This document shows, piece by piece, positions 2,502-54,600 of a DNA stretch of 64,000 bases; within the stretch, counting starts at the first letter, position 1; every line of letters begins with the position of its first letter. The DNA is from Schmidtea nova (lineage: Eukaryota), in contig CM097882.1 of the NCBI GenBank assembly GCA_044892505.1, positions 25,978,001 through 26,042,000 of the forward strand, given 5' to 3'. The notes beneath the pieces were generated by a model. That model ran no database searches and was not told the DNA's origin. It saw nothing but the letters and a program-made list of their open reading frames with translations. The position numbers were made by a program, and so were the translations under genes.

Positions 2502-2648
2502 CCCCTGAATGAATTCTCATTAATTTTTGTCGATCTTTATTTACTATTCATTATTCCTATTTTATGGTAGTCCTACCGTTCGCTTTCTGTTGTTCTGTTT
2601 TGCGTCGTTACTTGCGTATCCCCCCGTGTTCTTGAATGTCGCCCCGAC

Positions 2649-4100: not shown

Positions 4101-7100
4101 CTAGGCCTTCATCATATATCTATTTACTTTTACACTAGAATTATTACAAAATCTTCCATCTTTATTGATAACTTAAGTAGCCAATCTTTCCTCATAAACG
4201 ACTTCGTTACTTTCTTTGAAAACTTTCCCTTCTCTAAATATCCAAATTGGAATGAAATATTCTGGCCGATAAACTATGAAAATAACCTGTGGACTCTTTT
4301 TTATCTTAATAAATCCAAACATCTTGCAACCTTCATTGACCCAACCTGCGATAATAGTCTTGAACGTTACTCCACTACTGCGTCGAACATTCTAAATGCT
4401 ATTCTTAATATTCAAAAAATTATCTCTCCAATAGACATAAAACTTACTGAAACTAATACTCCTCGTTGTAATACTATATCTGATTCTGCTTACTTTGTCT
4501 GCCACTTCGCCTTCTGCCTTACTCGTAACTATCCTCTCACTTTTCCTCCTATATTAAAAATTAGAAAAAGCATTAATGAAAGTATTGAAAAAATTATAAA
4601 TGACCGTAAACCTGATCATGATATATCGAAACACACCAAAACTTTTAATAACATCATTAAAATGATCAATATAAATGCCTATACTCCTGACCAAGCACTA
4701 GATGATATGAAACCTATATTTTTTAATATTTTTCCTCTTAAAAATAAATTTAAAAAACTTTTTAAAATAAATAAAATAAATAGAGAAAGCTTCCAACTTA
4801 TCTTTACCTTGCGACTTCATTTTGACAAATTTCCAAAAAAAACTATTGAAAAAATACTAATTAAAAAAGACCTCATTACTAGAATCCCTGAATCTACTGA
4901 CATTAAAAACTTTTTTTCTAAACAAAAAAAATATACCATTAATTTAAATAACGGGTTAATTAGTAATATTTTTCATGACCTTTTTACTCAAGAACCATTT
5001 ACCAACAAAACAATTAAAGACATACTTAAAATACTTGATAAACGTTCCGCTCCTGGAAAAGACCATATATCTTACTCTGACTGGCAGAAAACTCTTGACC
5101 CAAACTTTAACTTTCTGGTAGCACTCTTTAATAGCATTCTTAGTAACAACACTTGTCCTCTTTCATGGAAGACCTTCAAAACCAAACTGGTTCTAAAACC
5201 AGGAAAAGAACTCTTATCTCACGACTTATCTTCTTGGCGTCCTCTTGCAATCCTTGACACCTCTTATCGCATTTTTACTGCTGTTCTTAACGACCGTCTC
5301 CTTTCTTGGATCTCTGCTGGGGATCTCATCTCTAAAAACCAAAAAGCCATTGGAATACCCGATGGATGTACTGAGCACAATACCATCCTAATCCTTACCA
5401 AAGAATGGGCCATACGTAACAAAAAAGACTTGAATATTATCTGGCTTGACCTTGCTGATGCCTTTGGCAGCCTACCTCACGACCTTCTTTGGAAAACCCT
5501 TACTCTTCTTGGATTACATGTTGAGACCATAAACCTTTTTAAAAACATGTATGAAAATATCTCTACCTTCTATGACTGCGAAAAAAGACTGACCGAAAAT
5601 ATTCCTATCTTTAACGGGGTAAAACAAGGATGCCCCCTCTCTATGACACTCTTCTGCTTATCAATTGACTTCATCATCCGTTACATACTCTCAAATCACC
5701 CCCTTGTCATCAACAATCTTAACGTCAGCATACTTGCGTATGCGGATGATCTTGTTCTTATTGCTGATAACTATAATGAAATATGTAAAATACTGACTGA
5801 CACAATCAACCTTACCAATATGGCTAACTTACAATTTAGACCAAATAAGTGTGGACATTTTCAACTCCACAGAAATAACTTAAACGAGCCTCTTTTTATT
5901 TATGATAACCCAATACCTTGCATAGATGAAAACAACCTTTATAAATATCTTGGCGTAAATTTTGGAAACCGCAACAAACATAATATAGATGACGTCTTAG
6001 AAAAAGCTTTATCTGACAGCAAAACTCTTTTTGAATCTGATCTTCACCCTGCACAAAAAATCTATGCTTATAAAACTTTTATACACTCTCGTCTTATCTT
6101 TCTCTTTCGAAACTGTACTCTTAATACAATGACTCTTGACTCTAGTAGAAGTAAAAGTGTTCAGGGAAACCCAAAACAAACTGGATATGACCAGAAAATA
6201 AGAAAACTTATAAAAAAATCTATAAATGATATCCACTTAAATTTAAATAATAACTTTATCTACTCACATATATCGCTTGGTGGCCTGGGTTTTGTCCCTA
6301 GTATTGATGAGTACCTAATCCAAAGTATCACACACCTTTTTAGACTACTTAACTCAAACCACTTAACAATGAGAAATTTTATTACCCAAGAAATGATCCA
6401 AGCTTGCAATGATAGATTTAAAAATAAAAACTGTGACCTAGAAAAAACCTTAAAATGGATAAACGCAGAAATCAAAGGTCAAATTAGTGGCCAAAAATGT
6501 CTTTTTAACAAATTTCGAGCATCTGTCAAACGCTTTAAACAAAAATTTAATATTTGTATAAAATTATGTACAATAGATAACAACTTCAATTTAGAAATAG
6601 CAAAAGACAATAACATAGAATACCTAAATCCCCTTGAAATAAGTGACACCTCTTCTTCTCTTCACACTATGACTGCTAAATGGTATTTTGAACAATGGAT
6701 CTTAATGAGCTGCCAAGGGCACATCGCAAAAACTATAGGACATAATACTCTTTCCTCTTTCTTAATTAAAAAACATGAACTTACTGAATACCAATACTTT
6801 TTCTTGATCAAAGCTCGAAATAATATGTTATCCCTAAACTACGGACCTTACAATCTTATAACTGACAAAAATATTCTTTGTAGACTTTGTAAAATGGAAC
6901 CTGAATCTCAAACCCATATTTTTAATCATTGCAAGCAAACAATAAACGCGAGACGTAATAAACATGATAGAGTCCTTATAGTAGTCCGCGATTTTTTGAT
7001 TTCTAAAAAATTCCATGTAGATATGGAAAAAAGTCCCCCAGGAGTTATAACCACCTTGAGACCTGACCTAATAGTGAAGTCTGATAAAAATGACCATATA

Positions 7101-7409
7101 CACATCTTAGACATTAAAGTTCCATACGACACTTTAGAAAACTTTGAAAATGCCCGTAGTAAAAATTTTGCTAAATATAGAGAACTAGGCTTAGAAACTA
7201 AAAAAGTTAATAAATGCAAAACAAAAATTGCCGCTATAGTAGTAGGTACTCTTGGCACCTGGGACCATGAAAACGACAGGCCATTAAGCGATGTTGGCCT
7301 AGATGATAAAGAAATAAAAACTTTATGTAAAAAAGTTATGGTTACTGCTGTCAAAGCAAGTTTCGATATATACATGGATCACATAACCAATAGATACAAT
7401 AACAATTAA
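4101..7409 (+). CDS. Ulp1-like (C48) pseudo-protease + reverse transcriptase + CCHC + REL endonuclease, in the same frame as 2649-4100
   Basis: Hand translation of 4101-4661 shows no stop and no ATG. It contains IFWPINYENNLWTLF, FIDP and PRCNTISDSAYFVCHFA. From 4662: KGVKQG-like NGVKQGCPLS, AYADD, CRLC..HIFNHC, RPDL, DIK, KY. Confidence 0.85.
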   Translation, partial: LGLHHISIYFYTRIITKSSIFIDNLSSQSFLINDFVTFFENFPFSKYPNWNEIFWPINYENNLWTLFYLNKSKHLATFIDPTCDNSLERYSTTASNILNAILNIQKIISPIDIKLTETNTPRCNTISDSAYFVCHFAFCLTRNYPLTFPPILKIRKSINESIEKIINDRKPDHDISKHTKTFNNIIKMININAYTPDQALDDMKPIFFNIFPLKNKFKKLFKINKINRESFQLIFTLRLHFDKFPKKTIEKILIKKDLITRIPESTDIKNFFSKQKKYTINLNNGLISNIFHDLFTQEPFTNKTIKDILKILDKRSAPGKDHISYSDWQKTLDPNFNFLVALFNSILSNNTCPLSWKTFKTKLVLKPGKELLSHDLSSWRPLAILDTSYRIFTAVLNDRLLSWISAGDLISKNQKAIGIPDGCTEHNTILILTKEWAIRNKKDLNIIWLDLADAFGSLPHDLLWKTLTLLGLHVETINLFKNMYENISTFYDCEKRLTENIPIFNGVKQGCPLSMTLFCLSIDFIIRYILSNHPLVINNLNVSILAYADDLVLIADNYNEICKILTDTINLTNMANLQFRPNKCGHFQLHRNNLNEPLFIYDNPIPCIDENNLYKYLGVNFGNRNKHNIDDVLEKALSDSKTLFESDLHPAQKIYAYKTFIHSRLIFLFRNCTLNTMTLDSSRSKSVQGNPKQTGYDQKIRKLIKKSINDIHLNLNNNFIYSHISLGGLGFVPSIDEYLIQSITHLFRLLNSNHLTMRNFITQEMIQACNDRFKNKNCDLEKTLKWINAEIKGQISGQKCLFNKFRASVKRFKQKFNICIKLCTIDNNFNLEIAKDNNIEYLNPLEISDTSSSLHTMTAKWYFEQWILMSCQGHIAKTIGHNTLSSFLIKKHELTEYQYFFLIKARNNMLSLNYGPYNLITDKNILCRLCKMEPESQTHIFNHCKQTINARRNKHDRVLIVVRDFLISKKFHVDMEKSPPGVITTLRPDLIVKSDKNDHIHILDIKVPYDTLENFENARSKNFAKYRELGLETKKVNKCKTKIAAIVVGTLGTWDHENDRPLSDVGLDDKEIKTLCKKVMVTAVKASFDIYMDHITNRYNNN

Positions 7410-24600: not shown

Positions 24601-27600
24601 TCACAATTCGTACGTTCATAATGATTTTTAAAATTCCTAAACAATATTTTGAAATTGGAAATATCAATCCTTTTCTTGCATGTCTTATTGTGCTCTCTTC
24701 GCTCTTTCTGGCACATTATAAAACCTCAATTCATAACAAAACAACAGATACTGGTTCGTATACATCAATGGAAAGTTTTTGTGATTTTAAATATAAAAGA
24801 AATATGATAATGGATTAGTTTATCGTTCTTGGACACTGCCTTAAACTTATTATAAATCTATATCTAGTATTGATACATTTGTTAAGTTACTACAGATAAA
24901 CGGATATTCAAAATCTGTCTTGCCACGAATAATGTGTGAAACTGTTGATAAGTATGTCAATAAGTTGAATATGATTGATGACAAAATCTCACCTGGTGTT
25001 GACCCGTTTAATACCCCTGATTTAGTTCCTTTGATTGAAACAGGTGATGTTGTCATGGGAATGAATGATAGTGTTGATAGTATTAATAATAGTATCATAA
25101 TAATAATGAAATAATTAAAAGTAACGAATAATAGCATTGGTATTGTTAAATTTTTTATCATTTTCTGAAAGTTCTGTAAATTTAAAAAAATCTTTATATT
25201 GGAAAGACTACTCTTTATCTCTGTAACCGAGTTCAAGAACGTGCCAGAAAAAGCGGAAAGAGTAATATTATTGAGCACAATAAGACATGCAAGAAAAGCA
25301 TTGATATTTAAAATTTCAAAATATTGTCTAGGGATTTTAAAAATTAATATGAACGTATGAATTGTGAGGCTTTGATGATTTATCAATGACATTTACTGCA
25401 CAAACCGATAAATTTAAACGATTTACAATCACACCATTTCCAAAAATTCAATTTGATGAAATTTTATAATTAATTCCTAAATTTCTTAGTTAATTACTTT
25501 TTCGACCTTGTATAAAATGTAATATATTTTTGAATATTTTCAAATATAAAATTGAATAAAATGGAATAGTATTGAATAAAATGGAATTTAAAATTGAATA
25601 AAATGTAATAATATTGAAAAATATGGAATATATTGAAAATGAAATATAGTTTTGATTCAAAACTATATATTATTCCATATTATTCAAGAATTTATTCTAT
25701 TTTATTCTATTTTATTCAATATTATATTGTATATTATTCAATACTGTATTACAATTTATTCAATATTATATTCCATATTATTCAATAAATATTACATTTT
25801 ATTCAATATTATATTCTATACGATTCAATACTATTACATTTCATTCAATACCATATTACATTTTATTCAATATTATATTGTATATTATTCAATACTATTA
25901 CATTTTATTTCATATTGTATTGCATATAATTTAATACTATATTACATTTTATTCAATATCATATTACATATTATTCAATACTATATTACATTTTATTCAA
26001 TATTATATTCTATACGATTCAATACTATTACATTTCATTCAATACCATATTACATTTTATTCAATATTATATTGTATATTATTCAATACTATTACATTTT
26101 ATTCCATATTGTATTGCATATAATTCAATACTATATTAAATTTTATTCAATATCATATTACATATTATTCAATATTATATTGTATATTATTTAATACGGT
26201 ATTACAATTTATTCATTATTATATTCCATATTATTCAATACTATATTACATTTTATTCGATATTAGTAGGGACAAGTGAGCGGTCTAGGCCAAACCATTT
26301 ATCCATAAACTATGTAATATTACGTAATAATTAGACAGTTAACCCGCATATCCAAAAAATACATAATACTTTATGTACTACGCAATTATTACATAATCAC
26401 TATGTCAATATTACGTCATCATTACGCAATTAATTAACTATTGTATAATTTTATATAAAACTTTAAATTCTTATATAACACAATAATTCTTATGCAATTG
26501 ATGACGTAATACTGAAATTCATTAATTTTTATTTATTTTTCATAATTTTTACAAAAAATATAAAATAAATTATTTTTTTCAAATTATTTTTCCAAAACTT
26601 TCAAAAATGCTCAGATTTAAATAATTTTTATACCAATCTACTTGGAATTCAATGGCGAACAAAAAAGGGTCAAAAAGTAAAAACATGAAAAATGGTCTTC
26701 TCCGGTAAATTTAACATGAAAAACCTTACTTGGTTAAAAATGGTTAAAATTCAAGAACTTTTACATATAAATAATCAGAATTTAACGCTCAACAATAAAA
26801 AGTAATATTAACTAGAAAAACAACAAAAAACACAAAGTATTTTAAAAATAAATAAATAAAACTTTATTTAAATAAATCTTATCATCTTCAGGCAAATTGT
26901 TCATCAGCAACATCTTCACGCACCCTCATAACCACATCAATTCCCTTATAATGTCCGTAAAGCCAGAGTAACATTTTTTCCCACCCAAAGTCTTTTGTCG
27001 TCAAGATTAGTCAAGGCAATCTTAGAAGATTTATTAGTAAAGAGTTGATGATTCTTACTAACTATTCTAGACTGATCAACAGAAACTATTGAATTATTAT
27101 TATAACAATCCAGATACGACTGATAATTCAGTTTAGTATCCTTCAATGTTATACCCTTAGCCTTAATGCACTCTTCATCACCTAAAAGACTATAACACTT
27201 TGGCCTAAGGAATACCCACTCATCATACTTGAATCCTTTATTCTCGTCTTTGAATTTACCAATGACGGAATCTAGGTTCCTACTGTATAATGGGTGATTC
27301 GGATCATAATTAGAAGTGTCAAGTAAGTTATCTCTTATCATGGCCGGTAAAAGAATATCAAGCTTACAATTTCTAATCTCAAGAAAAAACGATGTTAATT
27401 TCGCAGTTGAATTCGTTACGATATAAAAAACAATAAAAAACACAATTTTTAAAATAAATCTTTATTTAAATAAATCTTCGGCAATTAATTTGTATTGTAA
27501 AGGCCATCATAGTATGCCTTTCTCATTTCAGCAACCAAGATATGCAAAGATTGTTGTCTTTTAAAATCGTGGCAACAAGCACATCCATTGGTGCATGAAA

Positions 27601-30600
27601 CACGCATTGATTACTTACAAACAATGCAATTTTCAACGCACTTGACTCCAGCTCCAAGCACCATATCATAGTGCATTTCAAGCAACTCCTCAATATTGAT
27701 CCCTGTGTATTGGTATATTTTATGTACCAACAACTCGGGGCGCAATAATCGAGATTATTTTTAATCTTTGGATATAAATCTTGGATCTTCTTGAGAATTA
27801 CTTCGAGCAAATAAACTAAAAGAATAAATTAATATAAAAATAAAAATACTCTTACTTTTAGACATTTTCAAATTTTCACAATCAATGAGTAACAAACAAT
27901 ACAAACAAAATTTATTTAATTAATTAATGTATTTATTTCATTAATTATATTTTCCACATAATTTTTAAAATCCAAAGTTTTAATTCCAAGCATAACTACT
28001 TTTCCGCTGCCAAAGACATTGACACATACTGGATCAAATTTCTGTAGACGTAATGCTGGGAATATTTCTAGTTCGAACCAACAACGATATTTCTTTTGTA
28101 ATTCGTATAAATTAATAAATTTGCCGCCATCGGCCGGTAATTGTTTGAATCTCTAAATTTTTAATCTTGAATTTCAAATCCACCGGCTTTAACGGTTGTT
28201 CGCATCCTATTACCCGACACTTGCCAGATTTGAAGAAGATGATGGGGTACTTGCCGCTTCTGTCAACAACTTGTTTCGGTTTGCCACTCGGGAATATCAT
28301 ACCGGGAACTAAACATTTACCTTTATAATTGATGTTGCTCAACATTTTTGATTAATTAAACAAATATAAACAATATAAATTAATTAATTAAAATGGAATT
28401 AAGAAATGATGCCGTATATCAAATAGTAGGACCCAGCGGGAGTAGGATAACCTTGTTTGTATGTAAATTATTACAATAAAAATGTTTAAATCGCAATTCA
28501 ATAAAATTTATTGGCATCGGGGTGCTGATGAAGAACATGGATTGACTCAAGATCAGATTTGTAAATTAAAAATGACTATTATAAAAGGTTTTGACAAAAA
28601 TTGGTCATCTAGATTACATCAAGGTGATGTTATAATTATCGATGACTTGTATCAGGAAGCCAATAAAGAAAAAGATTTCAACAATTTATTTACAAAAATT
28701 AGTAGACACTTTGGTGTTACAGTTATTTTCATTACTCAAAATTTATTCCATCAAGGTGGTAGTCATAGAACCCGGAATTTAAATGTACAATATTTGGTTA
28801 TATTCAAAAACCCCCGAGATGCAACAATTATTAATTTTCTTGCAATACAAGTATACCCTAATGATAGAAATTTTTACTTGATTCATTTCAAGATGCAACT
28901 AAAATTCCACATGGATATCTGTTTTTCGACTTTACACAACAATGTCCTGATGATTTACGTATAAGAACTGATCTTTTCAATGAAAAAGGTATAACAGTTT
29001 ATAAACAAAATTGAAATCGTAAAATTAATTAATTAAAATGTCATTCAAAAAAGTCGTTGTTCAACCCGTTATTGGAAAATCCGATAAACAAAACTTAAAG
29101 GTAAATAAGATGTCATTGAAAAAGAAGTCAAAAATCAAGAAATCAAAGAAGAAATGGATTAAATTATAAACAAAACAAATTGTGAAAAAGCTGCTAATAA
29201 TGAAAAATGAACGCAGTTTACCATATTTTAATGCCTTGATAAAGGCTCCAATTAATAAACGTATGACAATCTTACAGGCTTTTCCCCCATTTGTTATTGA
29301 TGATTTGCTTGAGGTTATTGTCAATGTAATTCGTGGTAATGTAAACATTAGTAAAGCCAAAAAATTACGGCTACAAAAACATAAAAGATCACTTTTATCA
29401 CTAGTCAACACTAAAAATCGTAATCTTATGCGTAAGATAATTTATAAACAAAATGGCGGTTTCCTAGGTACATTAATTCCAATAGTATTATCAGCTATAA
29501 GTGCAATTTCATCATTTAAATGGGAACTAAAAATTCAATACCCGATAAACATAATTTAGACTTGAATATATTAACATCTTGTTGTAACAATGAAGGAAAT
29601 ATTAACCAAAAAGAAGGTAACCAAAAATCAATTAAAAAAGATTTGGACAAACCCAAAAGATCCCGATGGGTTTGCTGGGGTAAACAAAATTTCAAAAAGA
29701 GTAAAAAATTCAAAGAAAGATACACAAAAATGGTTATCTGATCAATTGGCATTGGGGGGTAAACTGTATAATATTACGTAATATTATACAGTTTAGGGAT
29801 AAATGGCTTGGCCGAGACCGCTCACTTGTCCCTACTGATATTATATCGCATATAATTCAATACTATATTACATTTCATCCAATATCATATTACATTTCAT
29901 TCCATATTATTCAATACCATATTACATTTTATTCAATATTATATTCCATATTATTCAATACTATATTACATTTTATTCAATATTATATTATATTCTATAC
30001 GATACAATACTATATTACATTTCATCCAATATCATATTACATTTTATTCAATATTATTCAATACCATATTACATTTTATTCATTATTATATTCCATATTA
30101 TTCAATACTATATTACATTTTATTCAATATTATATTCCATATAATTCAATGCTATTAAATTTTATTCAATATCATATTACATTTTATTCATATAATTCAA
30201 TACTATATTGCATTTTATTCAATATCATATTACATTTTATTCATTATTATATTCCATATCATTCAATACTATATTACATTTTATTCAATTATGTATTTAA
30301 TGCTATTAAATTTTATTCAATATCATATTACATTTTATTCATAATATTCAATACTATATTACATATTATTCGATATTATATTGCATATAATTCAATACTA
30401 TATTACATTTTATTCAATATTATATTCCATATAATTCAATAAATATTACATTTTATTCAATATTATATTCTATACGATACAATACTATATTACATTTCAT
30501 CCAATATCATATTACATTTTATTCAATATTATTCAATACCATATTACATTTTATTCATTATTATATTCCATATTATTCAATACTATATTACATTTTATTC

Positions 30601-32223
30601 AATATTATATTCCATATAATTCAATACCATATTACATTTTATTCATTATTATATTCCATATTATTCAATACTATATTACATTTTATTCAATATTATATTC
30701 CATATAATTCAATACCATATTACATTTTATTCATTATTATATTCCATATTATTCAATACTATATTACATTTTATTCATATATTATATTATTCAATATTAT
30801 ATTCCATATAATTCAATAAATATTACATTTTATTCAATATTATATTCTATACGATACAATACTATATTACATTTCATCCAATATCATATTACATTTTATT
30901 CAATATTATTCAATACCATATTACATTTTATTCATTATTATATTCCATATTATTCAATACTATATTACATTTTATTCAATATTATATTCCATATAATTCA
31001 ATACCATATTACATTTTATTCATTATTATATTCCATATTATTCAATACTATATTACATTTTATTCAATATTATATTCCATATAATTCAATACCATATTAC
31101 ATTTTATTCATTATTATATTCCATATTATTCAATACTATATTACATTTTATTCAATATTATATTCCATATAATTCAATACCATATTACATTTTATTCATT
31201 ATTATATTCCATATTATTCAATACTATATTACATTTTATTCAATATTATATTCCATATAATTCAATACCATATTACATTTTATTCATTATTATATTCCAT
31301 ATTATTCAATACTATATTACATTTTATTCAATATTATATTCCATATAATTCAATACCATATTACATTTTATTCATTATTATATTCCATATTATTCAATAC
31401 TATATTACATTTTATTCAATATTATATTCCATATAATTCAATACTATATTACATTTTATTCGATATTATATTGCACATAATTCAATATTATATTGCATTT
31501 TATTCAATATTATATTCCATACGATTCAATACTAAATTACATTTCATTGAATATCATATTACATTTTATTCAGCGCTATATTACATTCAAACCTTTGAAT
31601 AACACTAATGATTTTGTTATTTGTTTCTAAAAATAGTAATTAATATTACTATCCATATTTCGTATAATTGTATAGTCTATATATTTATAACTTTCAAATT
31701 CCATCAATTAGTCGGTTATAAATTAACATCAACGCTGGAAATTCTTTTCCTTGTAAAGAACGACGAATTTAATGGGGTGGTTTTCTACAAATTTCATTTT
31801 GACAATAATATTTCTAATTTATATTTGTATAAATTATTTTAAAAGATTGATTAAAAAATGTTAATTTTTAAGAATTACCAATCAATTGATAAAAAAGTGT
31901 TTAACGTGTTGCCGACAAGTTATGTGCTGTTACATTTATTCAGCCGATCTCCTTTGGAACTGAAATCCCCTCATATTTCAATGGGTTGGTCGGTAATGCA
32001 TTATGTTGCTTGGTTATTAAAACATCCTTCTGAATCAGATCGTTTAAACTTCATTAAAGGTGCTCTAGATGCATATGCAAACATGGTTTGATTGGTTTTT
32101 CTTTTATATTTAAATTTAATTTTAACTATTTACTTCAAGATTCGCCTGAAAGAACAAAAACATTATGCCGAAATCTATATTCAAATGATGGCAATTTTAG
32201 AAAGTGCTTTAAAAAATAATTGA
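9507..32223 (+). CDS. COG5: Conserved oligomeric Golgi complex subunit 5; 11 coding exons
   Basis: The spliced translation follows metazoan COG5 colinearly: GIEKLEGVLEMM, IALQ-IFSNL, PGR..FRASFW, EYPKLLKLF, SQIIGP, QPL, GFIKRV, LIRP, ELKSP..W..HPSESDRL..IKGALDAY. All junction phases were checked and are compatible. Confidence 0.95.
9687..9955 (+). CDS. COG5: COG5 exon 2
   Basis: LNEQLQTHVISKHDDLMSHAVGIEKLEGVLEMM...RRLK; proposed GC donor at 9956. Confidence 0.85.
10689..10770 (+). repeat. Dispersed repeat fragment homologous to 23297-23385 in opposite orientation
   Basis: CCTTGCATATCAAAGTGATGTGACATCCAATGTACCAGGAAAAGTATTCAATAAAGTTGTTCCAAC aligns with the reverse complement of 23297-23385 at roughly 85% by eye. 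Confidence 0.7.
11359..11567 (+). CDS. COG5: COG5 exon 3
   Basis: AG at 11357-58; HQRDPCKVSAAINEL...LGIALQ. Confidence 0.85.
11618..11780 (+). CDS. COG5: COG5 exon 4
   Basis: Follows a 50-bp intron; IFSNLNML...GGGK; donor GTAAAG at 11781 (alternative at 11775). Confidence 0.8.
13004..14564. mobile_element. MITE-like element with 22-bp TIR GCCCTTTTAACTAAAACAATTC, hosting the Merlin insertion
   Basis: 13004-13025 is the exact reverse complement of 14543-14564. No TSD recognised. Confidence 0.55.
13444..14542 (-). mobile_element. Merlin (IS1595-like) DNA transposon with degenerate transposase
   Basis: Perfect 23-bp TIR GGATCATGTCCATTATCTGCCAC and perfect 8-bp TSD GAATTGTT (13436-43, 14543-50). 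ORF pieces include C..C zinc ribbon, SIRNGSFF and FVDPDSGVHTQNI..LNELVW. Confidence 0.92.
17939..18190 (+). CDS. COG5: COG5 exon 5
   Basis: TPGRAAVPTGEQLASFRASFWTVVDKL...; 49-bp intron follows. Confidence 0.85.
18240..18661 (+). CDS. COG5: COG5 exon 6 (3' end runs into the N gap; about one codon missing)
   Basis: FLKKTLENEYPKLLKLF...FEQAFLSISLSKLFD...ELTLASVDPHLMT. Confidence 0.85.
18662..19152. other. Assembly gap (N)
   Basis: N run; hides the donor of COG5 exon 6. Confidence 1.
19153..20180 (-). pseudogene. pogo/Tigger-like (DDE_1) transposase remnant
   Basis: Minus-strand fragments MAFKKEVI, ARNNLAFRRKTN, KAWVNEDV...CII*DPCRAHI, VREIWDNLS; many stops and frameshifts. Confidence 0.65.
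20370..20579 (+). CDS. COG5: COG5 exon 7
   Basis: SCKNLGKMIDIVCTKFEQCISTDSDSSQIIGP...PNQL; GTAATT donor at 20580. Confidence 0.85.
20894..21203. mobile_element. hAT-type MITE, 310 bp
   Basis: TIR CAGGGATGGGCAAACT / AGTTTGCCCACTCCTG, perfect 8-bp TSD ATCTATTT, internal GCGGCCC repeats. Confidence 0.9.
21250..22702 (+). mobile_element. Possible non-autonomous Helitron/DINE-like element
   Basis: 5' motif TGCTGCCCGGCTTCGCCC and 3' ACAAACAGACAGACA...TATATTATAGAT resemble such elements. Motif resemblance only. Confidence 0.4.
21560..22030 (+). pseudogene. IS630/Tc1-like DDE_3 transposase remnant
   Basis: YLDESRFN, IIMDNDKIHH and FFPPYSPKLNSVEEC, in broken frames. Confidence 0.75.
22790..23400 (-). 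pseudogene. Ty3/gypsy pol (RT) remnant
   Basis: Minus strand PIPSTGEMIDIRNGSKYFTTLD and QSFLGLANYNR. Confidence 0.65.
23579..23749 (+). CDS. COG5: COG5 exon 8
   Basis: IVKDKLDHCLKLQITVIQPLMDNITSTLEEIITTVHSENF...ELD. Confidence 0.85.
23802..24107 (+). CDS. COG5: COG5 exon 9
   Basis: GFIKRVRVQY...LIRPTNDFGSQKLALDIEQFE...YRKLRGLK. Confidence 0.85.
24540..25390 (+). mobile_element. Penelope-like remnant (GIY-YIG end) with an inverted duplicate of its 3' end
   Basis: LLQINGYS, LYIGKTT..NRVQE and NFKIL motifs. About 24575-24706 is the reverse complement of about 25272-25390. Confidence 0.7.
25553..26258. repeat. AT-rich minisatellite (~44-bp unit), left part; the first ~100 bp are inverted
   Basis: TATTCAATACTATATTACATTT units. 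25553-25650 carries the complementary AATTGAATAAAATG form. Confidence 0.9.
26946..27424 (-). pseudogene. Protein-primed DNA polymerase B C-terminal fragment
   Basis: GKFKDE, FLRPKCYS, KAKGI and DDKR motifs. The 20 bp encoding AGDTDS in the 56.2-kb copy are deleted here. Confidence 0.85.
27523..27865 (-). CDS. Small Cys-rich Maverick ORF of unknown function, probably with a 40-bp intron (27816-27855)
   Basis: ATGTCTAAAA|GTAAGA...TTTTAG|TTTATTTG joins in frame to ORF 27523-27810 (MSKIYLLEVIL...CLKC...C...CVFH). Confidence 0.45.
27916..28345 (-). pseudogene. TBP-like (TATA-binding protein fold) gene with one +1 frameshift near 28135
   Basis: Repeat 1: MLSNIN...IIFFKSGKCRVIGC...IQTIT. Repeat 2, in the shifted frame: FINL..FELEIFPAL..VNVFGSGKVVMLGIK.. 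ending TAA at 27916-18. Compare TBP ALIFSSGKMVCTGAK and YEPELFPGL..LIFVSGKVVLTGAK. Confidence 0.75.
28393..29014 (+). pseudogene. Polinton packaging ATPase (A32/FtsK-like), frameshifted
   Basis: Degenerate Walker A VGPSGSRIT, Walker B IIIDD, SRH...IFITQNLF, YLVIFKNPRD, and GYLFFD in a shifted frame. Confidence 0.88.
29038..29168 (+). CDS. Short Lys-rich basic ORF (43 aa), possible Maverick core protein or frameshift product
   Basis: MSFKKVVVQPVIGKSDKQNLKVNKMSLKKKSKIKKSKKKWIKL. Confidence 0.3.
29182..29559 (+). CDS. Maverick basic core-like protein with QNGG|F protease site and a C-terminal hydrophobic helix
   Basis: KQNGGFLGTLIPIVLSAISAIS resembles adenain-cleavage-motif proteins of Polintons/adintoviruses. 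Confidence 0.6.
   Translation: MKKLLIMKNERSLPYFNALIKAPINKRMTILQAFPPFVIDDLLEVIVNVIRGNVNISKAKKLRLQKHKRSLLSLVNTKNRNLMRKIIYKQNGGFLGTLIPIVLSAISAISSFKWELKIQYPINII
29590..29755 (+). pseudogene. Polinton retroviral-like integrase N-terminus, truncated at the right TIR
   Basis: IWTNPKDPDGFAGVNKI...TQKWLSDQ. Confidence 0.7.
29843..31590. repeat. AT-rich minisatellite (44-bp unit, 88-bp dimer), right part
   Basis: Alternating AATATTATATTCCATATAATTCAATACCATATTACATTTTATTC and ATTATTATATTCCATATTATTCAATACTATATTACATTTTATTC. Confidence 0.95.
31873..32085 (+). CDS. COG5: COG5 exon 10
   Basis: VLPTSYVLLHLFSRSPLELKSP...HPSESDRLNFIKGALDAY. Confidence 0.9.
32140..32223 (+). CDS. COG5: COG5 exon 11 (terminal)
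   Basis: Follows a 54-bp intron; IRLKEQKHYAEIYIQMMAILESALKNN-TGA. Confidence 0.85.
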   Translation: MRLKEQKHYAEIYIQMMAILESALKNN

Positions 32224-32691: not shown

Positions 32692-33725
32692 CGTGGTGCG
32701 GTCAAAAGGTTTCCGGCCTACCCTACTTAACAAATTGATTTTTTAATGGAAATAGGTTTATTTTATTGGAAATTTATTGACAATTTCATGTTGAAAATCT
32801 ATTTGTCCTAATCCATTTACTTTATCTGTTGCAGATGGAAATGTCGTTGCAAGTGCATTCGCTGGAAAAAATTGAGTATCGCAGTGCTATTCGCTTTTGT
32901 GTTCTTCTCGGCCAAACCAACCAGGAAATCATGGCAAATCTGAATCGAGCCTATGGCGAAAAGTGTCCCTATCAGTCTACCATCAAGTTTTGGATTGCTG
33001 AATTCAAACGAGGTCGGCAAAGTGTGTCAGATGATGAACGAGAGGGTCGACCAACGACATCGAGAAATGAAGATGTGAAGGATAAATTGGAGAAAATGGT
33101 ACTGGAAGATCGCCTTATAACTACCAGGCAACTAAAAGAATCCCTACAAATATCACACGGCACTGTAGTGCAATTATTGAAAAACCTTAACTTCAACAAG
33201 GTGGTGTCTCGCTTTTTGACAACTGAGATGTGCAATAACCGATAGAATGCGTGTCTCATGAACCTCGCCATTTACCGCAAGTATGGAGAAAGATTTATCC
33301 AAAACATACTCACTGTTGATGAGACACCGTTGCCCCTACATCAGCTTGAATCAAAGCGGGAGTCTATGGAATGGAGAAAGCCGGAAGAAGGAAAAGTTTG
33401 GAAGTCTCGTTTCCGTACCAATGACTGTGGTTTCGAGATCATTAGCCACTTTCCATACAGCCCTGATTTGGCTCCCTAAGATTACTGCCTATTTACAGAA
33501 TTGAAGAAGCAACTGCGGAAATTATTTTGCGGATTTTTGACCAGCTTCCACCCTCATTTTACCATGGGGGTATTCGAAGCCCTCCCTGATCGTTGGCAGA
33601 AGTGTGTCGATGCCGGAGGTAATTGGTTCGAGAAGTAATGGTATTTGTGTTGATAAAAATATAGTTGTGGTTTCTTGCTTTTACTTTTTTCTGGGGTAGG
33701 CCGGAAACCTTTTGACCGCTACACG
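32692..33725 (+). mobile_element. mariner-family transposon with internal deletion and stops
   Basis: 32-bp TIR CGTGGTGCGGTCAAAAGGTTTCCGGCCTACCC (2 mismatches), TA TSD, HTH (EFKRGR..DDEREGRP), TVDET and YSPDLAP. Confidence 0.92.
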
Positions 33726-36824: not shown

Positions 36825-38039
36825 ATGAATAAAACATACTTTTGTCAGAAATCGAAGCCGGTTTTCATTGCCTGCATTTTTATTCCTCTTTCAATTTTGG
36901 GTATTTGTGGCAATTTTCTTCTTTTGACAGTAATGTTAAGACTGAAATTGAGAAAAAAAACTTTTTCCCGATTCCTGCAACTACTTGCCATATCAGATTC
37001 AATTTGTATCGCATTTCTTTTATTGGAATTCCTTGAAAACTTATATAGTAAGTTGATTACCATATCAAATGACAACGGTTCATTTGATAAGCTGCTGATC
37101 AATGATTATTATCTTTATCCCCGTACTGATATTCATTGTAAAATTGAACAATTCTTAAAGCATACTATTCTGTTGATTTCGGCTTCTACAAATGCGATTT
37201 TGACCATCGAGCGTTTCATGGTCATATTCTTTCCCTTAAATGGTAAAGTTTTGTGTACGACCCAATCAATTACTATCGTCATCATGACAACGGTCATCGC
37301 CAGTCTTTACATTCAGACTTTTAGAATTGTGTTCACAATATCAATCGGAAACAAATGTATGTTTCGTACTAAAGATCTAATTTTTGGCTATTATGCAGAT
37401 GAAATAATTGGAGGTTTGTTAATATTTTTAGTGCCATCTATAATCATTTTATTGTTTAACGCAATGATTCTTGTTAAAATCATAAGCTTCTCTCCCCATA
37501 TCAAATCAATGTCAGCATTACAACAGACCAACCGAAATTATAATTTACATAATTACTCTATCCAAGAAACGCAACCTTTCATTCAAGGTCACACCTGTTT
37601 GAGAAACCATTTCATCGTCAGGTCTTCGAATAATTCCGATTTTGGATTGTTTGTCTGCTCAAAGTGCGGAATCATGCTTCGAAGTCCGAATATTCGAATT
37701 CTCAAGAGTCGTCGGCGAGCTACGATGATTCTTTTATTCATTACATTTTCCTACGTCATCAGCCACATCGGTTATTCAACCTTGACCTTCTATTTTCTCT
37801 GTCGAATACACCAAGTGATTATGCTGCCATCAAACTCGACGGAATTGAATTCAGTTATTTTAGACATTTATCATTCGCTAGCTCCGGCGTCTTGCTATTG
37901 GTTTGACGCATGCATGACCTTGAAACTCATCGGTTATGGAGGGAATTTTTTTATTTATTTGCTCTTTGAAAAATCATTTCGAAATGAACTGTTGATCATT
38001 TTTAGTCGCTGGAGAAGACTGATAAGTCGTAGAATTTGA
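36825..38039 (+). CDS. Intronless rhodopsin-family 7TM receptor (peptide/chemoreceptor-like orphan), 404 aa
   Basis: GICGN (TM1), LAISD (TM2), TIERF..IFFPL (TM3), FLVP (TM5), RRATMIL (TM6), GNFFIY..FR (TM7/H8). Confidence 0.9.
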   Translation: MNKTYFCQKSKPVFIACIFIPLSILGICGNFLLLTVMLRLKLRKKTFSRFLQLLAISDSICIAFLLLEFLENLYSKLITISNDNGSFDKLLINDYYLYPRTDIHCKIEQFLKHTILLISASTNAILTIERFMVIFFPLNGKVLCTTQSITIVIMTTVIASLYIQTFRIVFTISIGNKCMFRTKDLIFGYYADEIIGGLLIFLVPSIIILLFNAMILVKIISFSPHIKSMSALQQTNRNYNLHNYSIQETQPFIQGHTCLRNHFIVRSSNNSDFGLFVCSKCGIMLRSPNIRILKSRRRATMILLFITFSYVISHIGYSTLTFYFLCRIHQVIMLPSNSTELNSVILDIYHSLAPASCYWFDACMTLKLIGYGGNFFIYLLFEKSFRNELLIIFSRWRRLISRRI

Positions 38040-45699: not shown

Positions 45700-46104
45700 A
45701 ATTTTTCATAAAGCTTTATATATTAAAATACTGGATCTGAGAGTTGTAGATGATAATCTGTATTGAGTGATTGAACTGGATTGTTAACTTGATCTTGCGA
45801 TTGGTCTATAAAAGAATCACATCCCTTAAAATGCCCATATTCTAAACTCTTATTTTTACACACCAATTTCTTATATCAATTAAGTTAGTTACTGCAATTT
45901 TATTATTCTTTATTGTAAATAATTGATGGTTTTTACTCACTATTCGAGATCATGATAAAGAAACCATCGAATTATTACGGTAACATTCCAGTTATGATTG
46001 ATATTTAATGTCAGTACTCTTTAATGTTATCCCTTTAGCCTTAATGTTTTCTTTATAGCTTAAAAAACTATAACATTTAGGTCTTAAAATACCCACTTCT
46101 TATA
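45700..46104 (-). pseudogene. pPolB C-terminal fragment, truncated at 46105
   Basis: LRPKCYSF..NIKAKGITLK...SKNHQLFT in broken frames. Confidence 0.8.
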
Positions 46105-46450: not shown

Positions 46451-48839
46451 ATAGGATTTTCTACTCCGAGATATTTCTCGGGCAATAAGGGACTCTGAAT
46501 TTTTGTTCAGGGAATTTTTATACATGAATTTTTATGCATGAAATTTTGTTCTGGTAATTTTGTATAGGATTTTGGTATGGATTTTTTGAATAGAATTTTC
46601 AACTCCCAGATTTTTCTCAGGTAAAAAGGGACTCTGGTAATTTTGAATTGAAATTTAAAAAACACGTGTAAATTTTTTAAACAAGTAAAATAGATTGAAA
46701 TTATTTTGAATAGGATTTTCTACTCTGTGATTTTTTCTCAGGCAAAAAAGGACTCTGATATTTTTTAACTGAAATTTATTTGTAAATAAAAACACGTGTA
46801 AATTTTTTAAACAAGTAAAATAGATTGAAATTATTTTGAGTAGGATTTTCTACTCTGATTTTTTGTCAGGCAAAAAAGGACTCTGGTTATTTTGAACTGG
46901 AATGTTAAATAGATTTAAATGGTTAAATTAAATAGACAATAAAACATGGAAAATTTTAGAAAAACAAAAGAATGACATAATATTTAAAATTTAATAAAAA
47001 AGGGTTAAATTAGGGCAAAGTCAGAGTTGAAATGATATAATATTTAAAATTTAATAAAAAAGGGTAAAATTAAGGCAAAGTCAGAGTTGAAATGACATAA
47101 TATGAAAATTTAAAAAATAAGTACGAAATTTTTTGGGAAATCTCAGAGACGCTAAATTTAAAAGTAAAATTTTTGAAGTAAATTTTTCAAAGTAAAATTT
47201 TTTTTAGAATAAAATTTATATACAATTTAAATTTTTATAAAATCTTAAACTAAATACAATAAACTTTTTTATACTGAAATTTTCAAGAGATTTTTATAGT
47301 AAATAAAAAACATGTAAATTTAGAAAAATGTTAAATAAATTTAAAAGGTTAAATTAAAACATGGAGAATTTTACAAAAATAAAAGAATGACATAATATTT
47401 AAAATTTAATAAAAAAGGGTAAAATTAAGGCAATGTTAGAATTGAAATGACATAATTCTTAAAAATTTAATAAAAAGGGTAAATTTAAAGTAAAGTCAGA
47501 CTTGAAATGACATAATATGAAAATTTAAAAAATAAGTACGAAATTTTTTGGGAAATCTCAGAGTTGGTAAATTTTTAAATATTAAATTAAAATTTTTTCT
47601 CAAAATGAAATTTTTTAACCAATAAAAGTCTTAACAAATAAAATTTTTTAACAAATAAAAATTAAACACTACAAATTGAATTTCAAATACAAAATTTTAT
47701 TCAGGAAAAGTTTTGTTGTAATATATATTCTTCTTAATTCTGTCAAAAGAAAGTGTTTGGTCTGGGAATTTCCAAAAATTAAAAAATTGTCAGAATTCAA
47801 TAATTTTTATACCAATCTACTGAGAATTGAAAGGCGAACAATAAAGGTCAAAAAATTAAAATCATGAAAAAATCAAAATTTTATACAGGAAATGTCAGTC
47901 TCAGTAAAAAGGGTAAAGTTCATAAAAAACGTGGAAATATTTAAAAAAATTTTAAACTAAATAATTAAATCTAAATAAATTTATGATAATTAAATAAAAA
48001 AGTAAATACTTTCTATACGAATTTCCAAACTCAGTAAATAATTCACTCAATATTGTTGTATTGAATTTATTAAGTAAAATGGTACATTAAATAAAAAGCA
48101 TGGAAATAATAAGTCAATTAAAGTTAGAATTTTAAAATAATTTGTACTGGATTTATGAAAAATGATAAAGTAAATAAATTAAAGATAGAATTTAAAAAAT
48201 AAATTAAGAATTTAAAGATAAATAGAATTATAAGCAAATAATTTTTTTTAAATAAGTAAATTAAGAAAGGCGTGAGTTTTAATGACATAATTTTAAAATG
48301 AATTGGTTTTAAATGAACTTTTTATTGTAATATTTGAAAAATGTGAGAATAATTAAATATTTTTGAAATTCTTTAAATTAAAATTTTTTAACAATAAAGT
48401 CAATGTAAAATTTTTTTTAACAATAAAATCAATGTAAAAAAATTTTTTTTTTAAACATTAACCAACAAGTAAAATTTATTAATTAATAAATACAAAGTAA
48501 ATATGTTTTCACAAGTAAATATTTTTCACAAGTAAAATTTTTAATTAATAAATACAAATCTAACTGTTTTTCAATATGATCTTTTTTTAAAGGAAATGAT
48601 CAAAGAACAACAAATAAATGTAATAAATAAAACACATGTAAATATTAAATTTATGTAGAATAAAAGTAGTTATTAAACAAGAGTTGTTACAATTTGTATA
48701 CTAAGTTAAAAAATATCGATTAATGTCATAAATTTTTCAAAATAAACGTAATAATTGAAAATATGTGAACAAGTAAAATAATAATATTAATAATAATAGT
48801 AAGTAACGTCTATCAATCAATCTAAGTACCAACAATAAA

Positions 48840-50160
48840 ACGATCAACTAACTAATAATCTCATTACACACACAAATCAACCACTGACTAGTAACTGATC
48901 AAATGCCAACTGACTCTATCCACAAATCAAAAACCTACTAGTTACTTACCAGTTAAAACTGACTCTATGTATTAACCAACTAAAAGAATTGATCCATATG
49001 TCAATCAATTATCTCTTCCTATTAACTATATATCAATTATTCCAATCCCCTTAGTTAACAAACAGACCAATTCCTTACTTACCAAATAGTTCTATACATC
49101 AACCAACTAACTGTATTCACAAATCCCCAACCAACTACACTAATCAACTAACTAACTATACACACTAACCAACAACTAATCTCTTACTTACCAACTACAT
49201 CAATACATCAACAAACTAACTCTTCACATTAACCAACAAATTTTATTCATTATTCTTATACCATCCATGCCAACTATATTAACCAACTAACTAACTAAAC
49301 ACTCTAACTATCAACCAATACCTTACTTCCCAACTACTTCTTCTCATTAACCAACTAAATCTATTCACAAATCACCAATCAACTACCCACTCTATACATA
49401 CTTACCAGTCAGCAATCAAATACTTACCTACCAAGTAGTTTTACACATTAACCAACTACTTCTAAATGTTAACCAACTAGTTCTATACACCCACTAATTG
49501 GTTCTATTCATTAATCCTATGCCAATCAACCAACCAACCGCTGTATACATACTAACCAGCAATAAATTCCTTACTAACCAAATAGTTCTATACATTAATG
49601 TTATATCTATCAATCAACCAAACAACTACACTAACCAACTAACTAACTATACATACTAACCAGCAACCAGTTCCTTACTAACCAACTAGTTATATACATT
49701 AACCAACTAAATCTATTCACAAATCACCAACCAACTACCCCCTCTATACATACTAACCAGTCAGCAATCAAATACTTACCTACCAAGTAGTTTTACACAT
49801 TAACCAACTACTTCTACATGTTAACCGACTAGTTCTATACACGAACTAATTGGTTCTATTCATTAATCCTATACCAACCAACCAACTAACCGCTCTATAC
49901 ATACTAACCAGCAATCAATTCCTTACTAACCAACTAGTTCTATACATTAGTCTTATACCTATCAATCAACCAACCAACTACTCTATCCAACCAACTAACT
50001 ATACATACTAACCAGCAACCAATTCCTTACTTACCAACTATTTATAAACATTAACGAACTAACTCTATTCATAAATCAACAACAGACTAGTTACTTATTA
50101 AATATAAATTGATTCTATCCACAATCAATTAGTTAAATCAACTAATCAGATACCAACTGA
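48840..50160. repeat. AACCAACT-rich satellite of the left arm (mirror image at ~52180-53420)
   Basis: A/C-rich on the + strand here and G/T-rich in the mirror. Unit copy number differs between arms. Confidence 0.85.
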
Positions 50161-51630: not shown

Positions 51631-54600
51631 TGAATTAATTATTATTATTTTTAGAATTTATTGACAATCAACAAAGAATTAATTGAATATTTATTTATTT
51701 AATCCTTTACATTAACGGAGTGAAGAATTAATTTGAACATGTAATAAGAAGTATCAAAAAATATTTCATTAGTTGCTTACTTATCCTTTTAATAGGTTTA
51801 CCTAGTTAACGGAGTTTTTATAATGGTTTTTTAATTAATTATACATGTTAGTTATCGAGTGAAGAATTAGATGAACAATGATTTCAATAGAGCTTTGGAT
51901 TAAAAGTTATTTGTATTTTAAATATATTCTAAATTTTAAGAACTCTATTTAATAAAAAAAATTTATTTTAACAACGTGGTTATTTGTATACCTTTTTAAA
52001 AACTGATAATCAACTAAAGATTAATTCAATTATTCTAAGTAATAAATTTAATTTTATGACACGAAATTTAGAATCAGTTAGTTTTAAATATCATATCTAG
52101 TTAATACGAAGAGTTAATTTATACGTGGAACAATTTCCTTAGAGTGAAGATTTATTTGTTTAATATATAGAGTCAGTTGGTATCTGATTAGTTGATTTAA
52201 CTAATTGATTGTGGATAGAATCAATTTATATTTAATAAGTAACTAGTCTGTTGTTGATTTATGAATAGAGTTAGTTGGTTAATGTATATAAATAGTTGGT
52301 AAGTAAGGAATTGGTTGCTGGTTAGTATGTATAGTTAGTTGGTTGGTTAGAGTAGTTGGTTGGTGATTTGTGAATAGAGTTAGTTGGTTAGTGTAGTTGT
52401 TTGGTTGATTGATAGGTATAAGATTAATGTATAGAACTAGTTGGTTAGTAAGGAATTGATTGCTGGTTAGTATGTATAGAGCGGTTAGTTGGTTGGTTGG
52501 TATAGGATTAATGAATAGAACCAATTAGTTGGTGTATAGAACTAGTTGGTTAACATGTAGAAGTAGTTGGTTAATGTGTAAAACTACTTAATAGGATAGT
52601 ATTTGGTTGCTGACTGGTTAGTATGTATAGAGTGGGTAGTTGGTTGGTGATTTGTGAATAGATTTAGTTGGTTAATGTATATAACTAGTTGGTTAGTAAG
52701 GAATTGGTTGCTGGTTAGTATGTATAGTTAGTTGGTTAGTGTAGTTGTTTGGTTGATTGATAGATATAACATTAATGTATAGAACTATTTGGTTAGTAAG
52801 GAATTTATTGCTGGTTAGTATGTATACAGCGGTTGGTTGGTTGGTGATTTGTGAATAGATTTAGTTGGTTAATGAGAAGAAGTAGTTGGGAAGTAAGGTA
52901 TTGGTTGATAGTTAGAGTGTTTAGTTAGTTAGTTGGTTAATATAGTTGGCATGGATGGTATAAGAATAATGAATAAAATTTGTTGGTTAATGTGAAGAGT
53001 TAGTTTGTTGATGTATTGATGTAGTTGGTAAGTAAGAGATTAGTTGTTGGTTAGTGTGTATAGTTAGTTAGTTGATTAGTGTAGTTGGTTGGGGATTTGT
53101 GAATACAGTTAGTTGGTTGATGTATAGAACTATTTGATAAGTAAGGAATTGGTCTGTTTGTTAACTAAGGGGATTGGAATAATTGATATATAGTTAATAG
53201 GAAGAGATAATTGATTGACATATGGATCAATTTTTTTAGTTGGTTAATACATAGAGTCAGTTTTAACTGGTAAGTAACTAGTAGGTTTTTGATTTGTGGA
53301 TAGAGTCAGTTGGCATTTGATCAGTTACTAGTCAGTGGTTGATTTGTGTGTGTAATGAGATTATTAGTTAGTTGATCGTTTTATTGTTGGTACTTAGATT
53401 GATTGATAGACGTTACTTACTATTATTATTAATATTATTATTTTACTTGTTCACATATTTTCAATTATTACGTTTATTTTTAAAAATTTATGACATTAAT
53501 CGATATTTTTTAACTTAGTATACAAATTGTAACAACTCTTGTTTAATAACTACTTTTATTCTACATAAATTTAATATTTACATGTGTTTTATTTATTACA
53601 TTTATTTGTTGTTCTTTGATCATTTCCTTTAAAAAAAGATCATATTGAAAAACAGTTAGATTTGTATTTATTAATTAAAAATTTTACTTGTGAAAAATAT
53701 TTACTTGTGAAAACATATTTACTTTGTATTTATTAATTAATAAATTTTACTTGTTGGTTAATGTTTAAAAAAAAAATTTTTTTACATTGATTTTATTGTT
53801 AAAAAAAATTTTACATTGACTTTATTGTTAAAAAATTTTAATTTAAAGAATTTCAAAAATATTTAATTATTCTCACATTTTTCAAATATTACAATAAAAA
53901 GTTCATTTAAAACCAATTCATTTTAAAATTATGTCATTAAAACTCACGCCTTTCTTAATTTACTTATTTAAAAAAAATTATTTGCTTATAATTCTATTTA
54001 TCTTTAAATTCTTAATTTATTTTTTAAATTCTATCTTTAATTTATTTACTTTATCATTTTTCATAAATTCAGTACAAATTATTTTAAAATTCTAACTTTA
54101 ATTGACTTATTATTTCCATGCTTTTTATTTAATGTACCATTTTACTTAATAAATTCAATACAACAATATTGAGTGAATTATTTACTGAGTTTGGAAATTC
54201 GTATAGAAAGTATTTACTTTTTTATTTAATTATCATAAATTTATTTAGATTTAATTATTTAGTTTAAAATTTTTTTAAATATTTCCACGTTTTTTATGAA
54301 CTTTACCCTTTTTACTGAGACTGACATTTCCTGTATAAAATTTTGATTTTTTCATGATTTTAATTTTTTGACCTTTATTGTTCGCCTTTCAATTCTCAGT
54401 AGATTGGTATAAAAATTATTGAATTCTGACAATTTTTTAATTTTTGGAAATTCCCAGACCAAACACTTTCTTTTGACAGAATTAAGAAGAATATATATTA
54501 CAACAAAACCTTTCCTGAATAAACTTTTGTATTTGAAATTCGATTTGTATTGTTTAATTTTTATTTAGTAAAAAAAAAATTTTATTTGTTGTTTAATTTT

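Follow-up and report, generated by a model that had tools for sequence, protein, structure and literature searches.

This report concerns a small gene belonging to the TBP (TATA-binding protein) family that is carried by a Maverick/Polinton transposon in the genome of Schmidtea nova. The gene lies, in broken form, in a 64,000-nucleotide stretch of contig CM097882.1 (assembly GCA_044892505.1, positions 25,978,001 to 26,042,000 of the forward strand), which we call the window. Open siblings elsewhere in the genome encode a protein of 144 residues, the mini-TBP, which is predicted to fold as a TBP saddle and probably serves as the element's own late-promoter factor by reading the word ATAAAC. The features of the window element are as follows.

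27916..28345, minus strand: mini-TBP gene, broken here and 144 codons long in open siblings; the frame shifts between 28136 and 28137; identified by Pfam PF00352 and by a model and fold searches of a natural sibling
26259..26264, no strand: left target-site duplication, GATATT
29837..29842, no strand: right target-site duplication, GATATT
26265..27424, no strand: left terminal inverted repeat (TIR) of the long type, containing a copy of the 3′ end of the gene for protein-primed DNA polymerase B (pPolB); 90% identical to the right arm of sibling L027 over about 1.05 kb
26946..27424, minus strand: pPolB 3′ end, within the TIR; the same piece ends the full pPolB of L027
28366..28371, plus strand: ATAAAC upstream of the ATPase gene, candidate mini-TBP binding site
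28393..29014, plus strand: packaging ATPase gene, broken (a stop, a frame change and a damaged Walker A); a sibling's matches Pox_A32 at 28.2 bits, above the cut-off of 22.8
29001..29006, plus strand: ATAAAC upstream of the 43-codon basic frame
29038..29169, plus strand: Lys-rich open reading frame (ORF) of 43 codons, possibly a core-protein gene
29166..29171, plus strand: ATAAAC upstream of the pX-like gene
29200..29559, plus strand: adenovirus protein-X-like (pX) core protein gene; Adeno_PX 23.7 bits here and 25.3 bits in a sibling, cut-off 25
29545..29550, plus strand: ATAAAC upstream of the integrase gene
29590..29752, plus strand: 5′ stub of the integrase gene, cut by a large deletion; siblings run on here into integrase, capsid and pPolB genes
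29757..29836, no strand: remnant of the right TIR, about 80 bp, 90% identical to the left end

A broken copy in a Maverick relic and its open siblings

The first-pass annotation of this DNA had noticed a minus-strand TBP-like gene, only the first half of which appeared as an ORF, and this part of its account holds. The gene runs from 28345 to 27916, carries the quoted TBP-like repeat motifs, and scores 32.0 bits (E 1e-7) on the Pfam TBP profile when the break is read through as X, the cut-off being 22.9. The 3′ half alone scores 25.9 bits, and the 5′ half alone gave no Pfam TBP match. Its ATG (28345) stands head to head with that of the ATPase gene (28393), with the 47 bases between them that had been reported. 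The break itself had been misjudged as one extra base near 28135; compared with an unbroken sibling, five bases are missing between 28136 and 28137, and 10 substitutions have accumulated. The first frame ends after 77 codons, and the second half lies in a different frame. Similarly, the motif FELEIF is indeed present in the window, but it is a product of decay, the siblings reading FEPEIF. A sequencing error is an unlikely cause of the break given the 10 further substitutions, the broken ATPase gene, and the roughly 94% identity of this copy to siblings whose TBP genes differ by 0.3%. Because the adjoining ATPase gene is broken too, the window copy is a relic. It cannot make the mini-TBP.

The setting in a Maverick bounded by target-site duplications (TSDs) was also described correctly. 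The element spans 3,572 bases (26265-29836), begins with AGTAGG at 26265, ends with CCTACT at 29836, and is bracketed by the 6-bp duplication GATATT; AG ends and a 6-bp TSD are those by which Maverick/Polinton elements are recognized. It was inserted into an AT-rich satellite with a 22-base period (about 25500-26264 and 29843-31560). Only the 3′ end of pPolB remains. We rejected the idea that the left-hand piece is a deletion remnant, since it is accounted for by long TIRs such as those of L027, which measure 1.37 kb and include the pPolB 3′ end.

Siblings were sought in the window's own genome (1.25 Gb, AT-rich, of animal type). A search with the mini-TBP DNA gave 3,254 candidates, the best 40 of which were scored and showed 95-100% identity. 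The intact copies that the first-pass annotation had asked for exist: the 144-codon frame is open in 28 of the 29 other loci fetched and stops at codon 125 in the last, these loci being best matches and hence a sample biased towards well-kept copies. A PF00352 search yielded 14,001 candidates (150 scored), and the 30 loci fetched from it comprised 7 host TBP-family genes and 23 element-type genes, 20 of the latter adjoining an ATPase gene. Elements chosen by their capsid gene rather than by TBP carried the mini-TBP head to head with the ATPase in 5/5 cases (5 of 105 matches examined). Among the host genes (L119-L125) are one canonical TBP, another TBP present as two inverted copies close together, and two paralogues that have diverged strongly and have long single frames.

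Beyond the point where the window copy is deleted, siblings continue with integrase, two genes of 340 amino acids (aa), a 135-aa gene, a 408-aa gene, a protease-like frame, and pPolB. Sibling L027 has 15,972 bases between its TSDs (GGTTTG), which fits the Maverick length of 15-25 kb, and its TIRs are 94% identical. The pPolB core of the family matches DNA_pol_B_2 (E 1e-19), and the putative retroviral-type integrase gives weak matches on separate pieces (rve_3, E 0.028; chromodomain, E 6.5e-4). The 408-aa and 340-aa ORFs found no Pfam match, though they are conserved and in the expected place; we take them, from their position, to be capsid-like and penton-like genes, both absent from the window copy. 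Likewise, the frame after the capsid gene with an HWIAV...CGQHC motif is presumably protease-like, of the adenain-like cysteine type.

Several further features of these families deserve mention. L027 with its neighbours L115, L116 and L191, and L150 with L180 and L181, have terminal repeats of 1.1-1.4 kb that contain coding DNA; one family has the pPolB 3′ end there, another a 147-aa ORF at each end. The penton-like gene is tandemly duplicated (L116:855-2904; L047:5616-7684), giving two 340-aa paralogues that are 44% identical in the window's family. A truncated copy of a second TBP-bearing family (L117) directly adjoins a copy of the window's family (L017). Every own-genome family seen has its integrase frame interrupted at much the same point, whereas the frame is whole in L041 and L047. 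In L116 (about 4530-4990) the protease-like frame follows, read by eye, a GT...AG stretch just past an ATG that is itself 31 bases below an ATAAAC. The split and the GT...AG stretch suggest spliceosomal introns, which would fit Pol II (RNA polymerase II) as the transcribing enzyme.

Fold, lineage and selection of the mini-TBP

The first-pass annotation had let its reading depend on a TBP fold and on intact copies under purifying selection, and both came out in its favour. A natural sibling scores 50.1 bits on PF00352 (cut-off 22.9), through its C lobe only. The AlphaFold2 model of a natural copy, built from 13 sequences, reaches a mean confidence (pLDDT) of 94.4, and Foldseek returned 44 PDB matches at E<=0.001, those listed being TBP entries throughout. 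VIA-align places it on human TBP with Z 12.9 and a root-mean-square deviation of 2.5 Å, with 144 residues aligned over residues 164-337 and thus both lobes, whereas the best non-TBP chain reaches Z 6.6. Structure matches to viral proteins in BFVD go down to E 1.5e-7. According to this model, the mini-TBP has the two-lobed saddle fold of TBP. Both helices of the N lobe are absent from the model, which has none ahead of residue 81; the alignment has a gap in this region, where longer relatives retain a shorter segment.

To compare the DNA-contacting face with that of canonical TBP, we used the yeast numbering given for contact residues in Table 1 of PMC12529657, transferring it through an alignment to 152 rows of the mini-TBP clade (mini-TBP positions in brackets). 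Three intercalating phenylalanines (Phe) are kept, F116 (F38) in 147 rows, F190 (F97) in 151, and F207 (F113) in 151; the fourth, F99, has no conserved Phe equivalent. Of the two central asparagines (Asn), the equivalent of N69 is kept in 131/152 rows, and that of N159 is serine or threonine (S/T68) in 152/152. Three of four Phe, the first Asn, and a shortened first repeat are what the first-pass annotation had read from the window copy, and the clade largely agrees with it. Other positions of the DNA face are remodelled almost without exception, V122 to Arg (R44) in 147 rows, T124 to Met (M46) in 151, and L205 to Asn (N111) in 151; relative to canonical TBP, the element protein also has Asn for V71.

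The surfaces that canonical TBP offers to other proteins have fared unequally. In TBP, the C-lobe glutamates (Glu) C.L3.2 and C.L3.4 contact TFIIB, and N-lobe helix H2 carries a patch for TFIIA, TAF1, Mot1 and Brf (PMC7221094; statements from this and most other papers cited here draw on extracts of them). The Glu pair is kept, E93 in 140/152 rows and E95 in 150/152, and no part of the protein is better kept across the clade than the TFIIB-contact loop. H2 with its basic patch, on the other hand, is missing. The mini-TBP therefore departs from canonical TBP in three features: the four Phe, the two central Asn, and helix H2.

The clade is widespread. A profile search returned 57 clusters (at 50% identity) with E<=1e-30, and a metagenome scan gave 77 loci, the five weakest of which (L104-L108) lack the clade's residues and were left out. 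Maverick genes neighbour the mini-TBP gene on 13/13 contigs of at least 5.5 kb, 8/10 of 3.5-5.5 kb, 11/19 of 2-3.5 kb, and 1/30 below 2 kb; in L102, a distant ATPase gene is the sole neighbour. The place of the gene differs among elements, being head to head with the ATPase gene, upstream of it, or after the capsid gene. Atlas clusters for the protein carry TBP labels only (score 0.98), and their taxon labels, which rest on 1-9 members, were not used. A phage collection gave no match to the mini-TBP. Outside the clade, the 44.7-kb IMG/VR contig L031 encodes a complete two-lobe TBP of 182 aa and has TATATA words 35-50 bases before many genes. Near the TBP genes of L034 (4008-4316) and L047 (near 719, minus strand) lie ORFs that, to judge by their motifs, may encode a dual-specificity phosphatase and a ubiquitin-conjugating enzyme.

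An IQ-TREE phylogeny of 38 rows gathers 20/20 element-type rows behind a 100/100 branch and leaves the four TBP-family rows of the host outside it, with an open fork among the outgroups. A FastTree placement of the protist-like rows L104-L107 as nearest relatives was discarded, as its supports were unreliable after re-rooting and IQ-TREE did not keep it.

The mini-TBP lineage is under purifying selection. Among pairs of natural open frames, which are not independent of one another, the proportion of synonymous differences exceeded that of non-synonymous ones at P<0.05 in 23/26. The ratio of non-synonymous to synonymous rates (dN/dS) was 0.12-0.38 in the 14 pairs with dS of 0.18-1.43; one near-identical pair gave 1.2, and one pair was saturated. 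Within the window's family (27 copies), 6 synonymous and 8 non-synonymous variants correspond to a ratio of 0.35 (P 0.047). These values speak against the weakest of the alternatives, that the mini-TBP is a recently captured fragment of host TBP and a functionless passenger: the window copy is broken, as such a passenger might be, but a dN/dS far below 1, a long branch away from the host's TBP family, and presence in distant Mavericks largely refute it and make it most improbable.

The ATAAAC word and a candidate late-promoter factor

The genes of these elements share a promoter-like word. We counted words at -70..-13 from the ATG, de-duplicated the stretches by shared 12-mers, and compared the counts with those in shuffled sequence. 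ATAAAC is the top 6-mer before genes other than TBP, being found in 54/75 stretches (5.1 in shuffles). It is most regular before the ATPase gene (22/23; shuffle mean 1.8, maximum 7; antisense 0), where it clusters at -31 to -41, and also precedes pX (8/11), integrase (6/11), penton-like (8/13), and capsid-like (8/10) genes. The mini-TBP genes themselves behave differently: ATAAAC precedes only 2/54 of them, whereas a canonical TATA precedes 28/54 (shuffle mean 9.0, maximum 15).

Two other readings of the word were rejected. It is not a poly(A) signal, because an A stands before it at only 2 of 55 sites (T at 31, C at 19, G at 3). Nor does it reflect constraint on encoded protein, as it lies mostly in non-coding DNA before the ATPase gene and elsewhere in all three frames. 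For comparison, 13 pPolB-related viral contigs without a TBP match had ATAAAC before 0/12 ATPase genes, 0/2 capsid genes, and 2/103 long ORFs, these controls being distant ones with pPolB only 26-35% identical. Scans of viral contigs with ATPase and capsid alignments found no closer TBP-less controls, and a capsid search of the window's own genome met TBP-bearing families only (5 of 105 matches examined).

We propose, with a probability of about 0.66, that the Maverick-encoded mini-TBP acts as the element's own late-promoter factor, reading (T/C)ATAAACA and passing it on to host TFIIB and Pol II. Expression of the mini-TBP would come first, driven in many relatives by host TBP at an ordinary TATA box. 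Its remodelled saddle, with Arg, Met, Ser/Thr, and Asn for V122, T124, N159, and L205, would then read (T/C)ATAAACA in the minor groove, and its intact C-lobe EPE loop would recruit host TFIIB and hence Pol II, no TFIIB gene being evident in the element itself. Without helix H2, to which TFIIA, TAF1, Mot1/BTAF1, and Brf bind, the protein would be free of these regulators. The outcome would be an early-to-late switch that turns on the ATPase, pX, integrase, penton, and capsid genes.

The presumed link to TFIIB comes from the conserved residues. A search of the genome for the TFIIB family gave 25 candidates and 6 matches, compared with the 14,001 candidates for TBP; no multicopy element TFIIB was seen in this Pfam search, and the two loci examined are host-type Brf-like and TFIIB exons. 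Critically speaking, a strongly diverged element TFIIB could escape such a search, and this is one of several points that weigh against the proposed factor. The TBP-less controls are distant and probably from other hosts, and do not amount to a matched control; the TBP-bearing elements are kin, so that the counts are not independent even after de-duplication. Coverage is also uneven, with the word before only 2/7 of the 135-aa genes that precede the capsid gene and 1/5 pPolB genes, and missing before the ATPase-like gene of L102 and the capsid gene of L027. Distances were measured to the ATG and imply very short leaders. The early step is not general, because the TBP genes of the window's own genome have no canonical TATA within 90 bases in 6/7 stretches, the seventh being broken or likewise without one. 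Loss of the first Phe (F99) and second Asn (N159) may weaken DNA bending. Promoter binding, expression, and the transcript starts of the target genes are all predictions at this stage.

A further point leads to the strongest rival. With 31/55 sites reading TATAAAC, the word could perhaps be read by host TBP alone, or by a paralogue, as a TATA variant, the mini-TBP having another task, for instance as a decoy that sequesters TFIIB and dampens the transcription of host genes. The host does have several TBP-family genes, two of them strongly diverged, and a TFIIB-contact loop that is the best-kept part of the protein would suit a decoy. Nonetheless, 19/55 sites read CATAAAC, a pure decoy would not need near-invariant new residues at DNA-facing positions, and a division between ordinary TATA before many TBP genes and the variant word before other genes is not what this explanation leads one to expect. 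We regard it as unlikely, though still the first alternative to consider. Of the two roles offered in the first-pass annotation, driving the element's own promoters gains indirect support from the ATAAAC word, whereas competing with host TBP finds no direct support.

It is less likely again that the mini-TBP is a repressor that occupies ATAAAC promoters without forming a productive complex and so silences integrated copies. The absence of the N-lobe helices that bind TFIIA and TAF1 (in the extract of PMC7221094) would agree with this, as would the head-to-head arrangement with the ATPase gene, in the window's genome, across one shared site; both TFIIB-contact Glu are, however, kept in nearly all members, which suits productive initiation. 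Slightly further down, and similarly improbable, we place a non-transcriptional task on DNA, for example recognition of the terminal repeats in replication, integration, or packaging. The frequent proximity to the packaging ATPase gene points that way, but the position of the mini-TBP gene varies among elements, the word keeps a fixed distance from gene starts and stands on the sense strand, and the TFIIB loop is kept.

The rest of the window holds further repeats and genes. Two more pPolB 3′-end pieces (56227-56742 and 45852-46097), 78% and 74% identical to that of the element, are remnants of other Maverick families. A 1.8-kb inverted repeat, 99% identical (47644-49428 / 52791-54575), surrounds internal tandem repeats, and each arm has about 100 bases resembling the Maverick terminal repeat. 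In addition, there are a young-looking element of the long interspersed nuclear element (LINE) type (2571-7409) with two long open frames, one of 509 aa and a second of 1102 aa that includes a reverse transcriptase, an intronless seven-transmembrane receptor gene of 404 aa (36825-38039; 7tm_1, Srx), and a broken mariner-type transposase gene (32835-33479; HTH_48).

Known relatives and biological meaning

With cellular and archaeal TBP (PF00352; PDB 7egb_P, 1cdw_A, 2z8u_B), the mini-TBP shares the two-lobe saddle, the equivalents of F116, F190, F207, and N69, and both TFIIB-contact Glu. It differs in its length (144 residues against 173-193 in solved single TBP chains), in its identity of only about 25%, in having no predicted N-lobe helix and no F99, and in being encoded by a mobile element. 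The paralogues TRF2/TBPL1 are likewise TBP-family proteins whose DNA face has changed and which are thought to recognize other promoters (extract of PMC7221094), but they are host genes with both lobes complete, and in the tree the diverged host paralogues stand apart from the element proteins.

Viral TBPs are closer in kind. The TBP mimics of beta- and gammaherpesviruses, such as ORF24 of Kaposi's sarcoma-associated herpesvirus, combine a viral TBP fold with late promoters that carry a variant word (TATT), and ORF24 has polar changes at the same V122, T124, and L205 positions. In contrast to the mini-TBP, ORF24 has 752 residues, its own Pol II-binding domain, partner proteins, and all four Phe, and its model is reported to be incompatible with direct TFIIB binding, while the Maverick protein consists of the saddle alone and retains an intact TFIIB loop (all on ORF24 from the extract of PMC12529657). 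By analogy, it is these late-gene mimics that the mini-TBP would most resemble in its working. The TBPs of large double-stranded DNA viruses (phycodna-, mimi-, asfar-, irido-, and poxviruses) also have a virus-borne TBP fold in which the N-lobe regulator signature is not conserved, but, as far as the extract of PMC7221094 goes, their TFIIB contacts have diverged and a viral TFIIB frequently accompanies them. The Maverick protein has host-like TFIIB contacts, no element TFIIB was found in the genome search, and the element measures about 16 kb.

Regarding the elements themselves, the family has pPolB and packaging ATPase genes, a putative integrase gene, protease-like and capsid-like frames, TIRs, a 6-bp TSD, and a length of about 16 kb, as known from Maverick/Polinton elements, or adintoviruses. 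The conserved genes that the extract of PMC6431247 names do not include TBP, whereas in the present elements it characterizes a broad lineage, along with a promoter word. The first-pass annotation, which knew of no TBP in the Polinton gene set, was nearly right: Fig. 5 of Starrett et al. 2021 (PMC8502044) bears a 'TBP' label for a gene in a midsize linear double-stranded DNA element with an adintovirus-like PolB, which slightly reduces the novelty. In the parts of that paper covered here, the label is an unexplained legend entry in a section on non-animal datasets, with no analysis, selection test, or promoter word, and the one supplementary file searched gave no match for TBP. This paper and its preprint were all that our literature search on TBP and Polinton elements returned; Repbase and most subscription journals lay outside it and may hold earlier annotation. 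PMC12220804 and PMC10675990 were, from their extracts, not relevant to a Maverick TBP. Membership in the TBP family is known in kind, and the new part is a Maverick-lineage mini-TBP with its promoter word.

A dedicated promoter factor with a named target word would bear on how Mavericks control their genes and on whether they have a virus-like early/late programme, and would support the view of Mavericks as integrated viruses. More tentatively, and at somewhat less than even odds, an animal Maverick lineage would run a two-step virus-like programme through a single stripped TBP with changed specificity, a private ATAAAC promoter, and no regulator surface, viral TFIIB, or partner proteins. Known viral TBPs belong to large genomes and have their own TFIIB or form part of a larger protein, whereas the mini-TBP appears to be built for host TFIIB. 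As a natural minimal TBP, it shows which parts of the saddle can be dropped and which changes may retune the DNA word. If the proposed role is true, host or neighbouring promoters that happen to contain ATAAAC could be activated as well, the copies in this genome numbering in the thousands.

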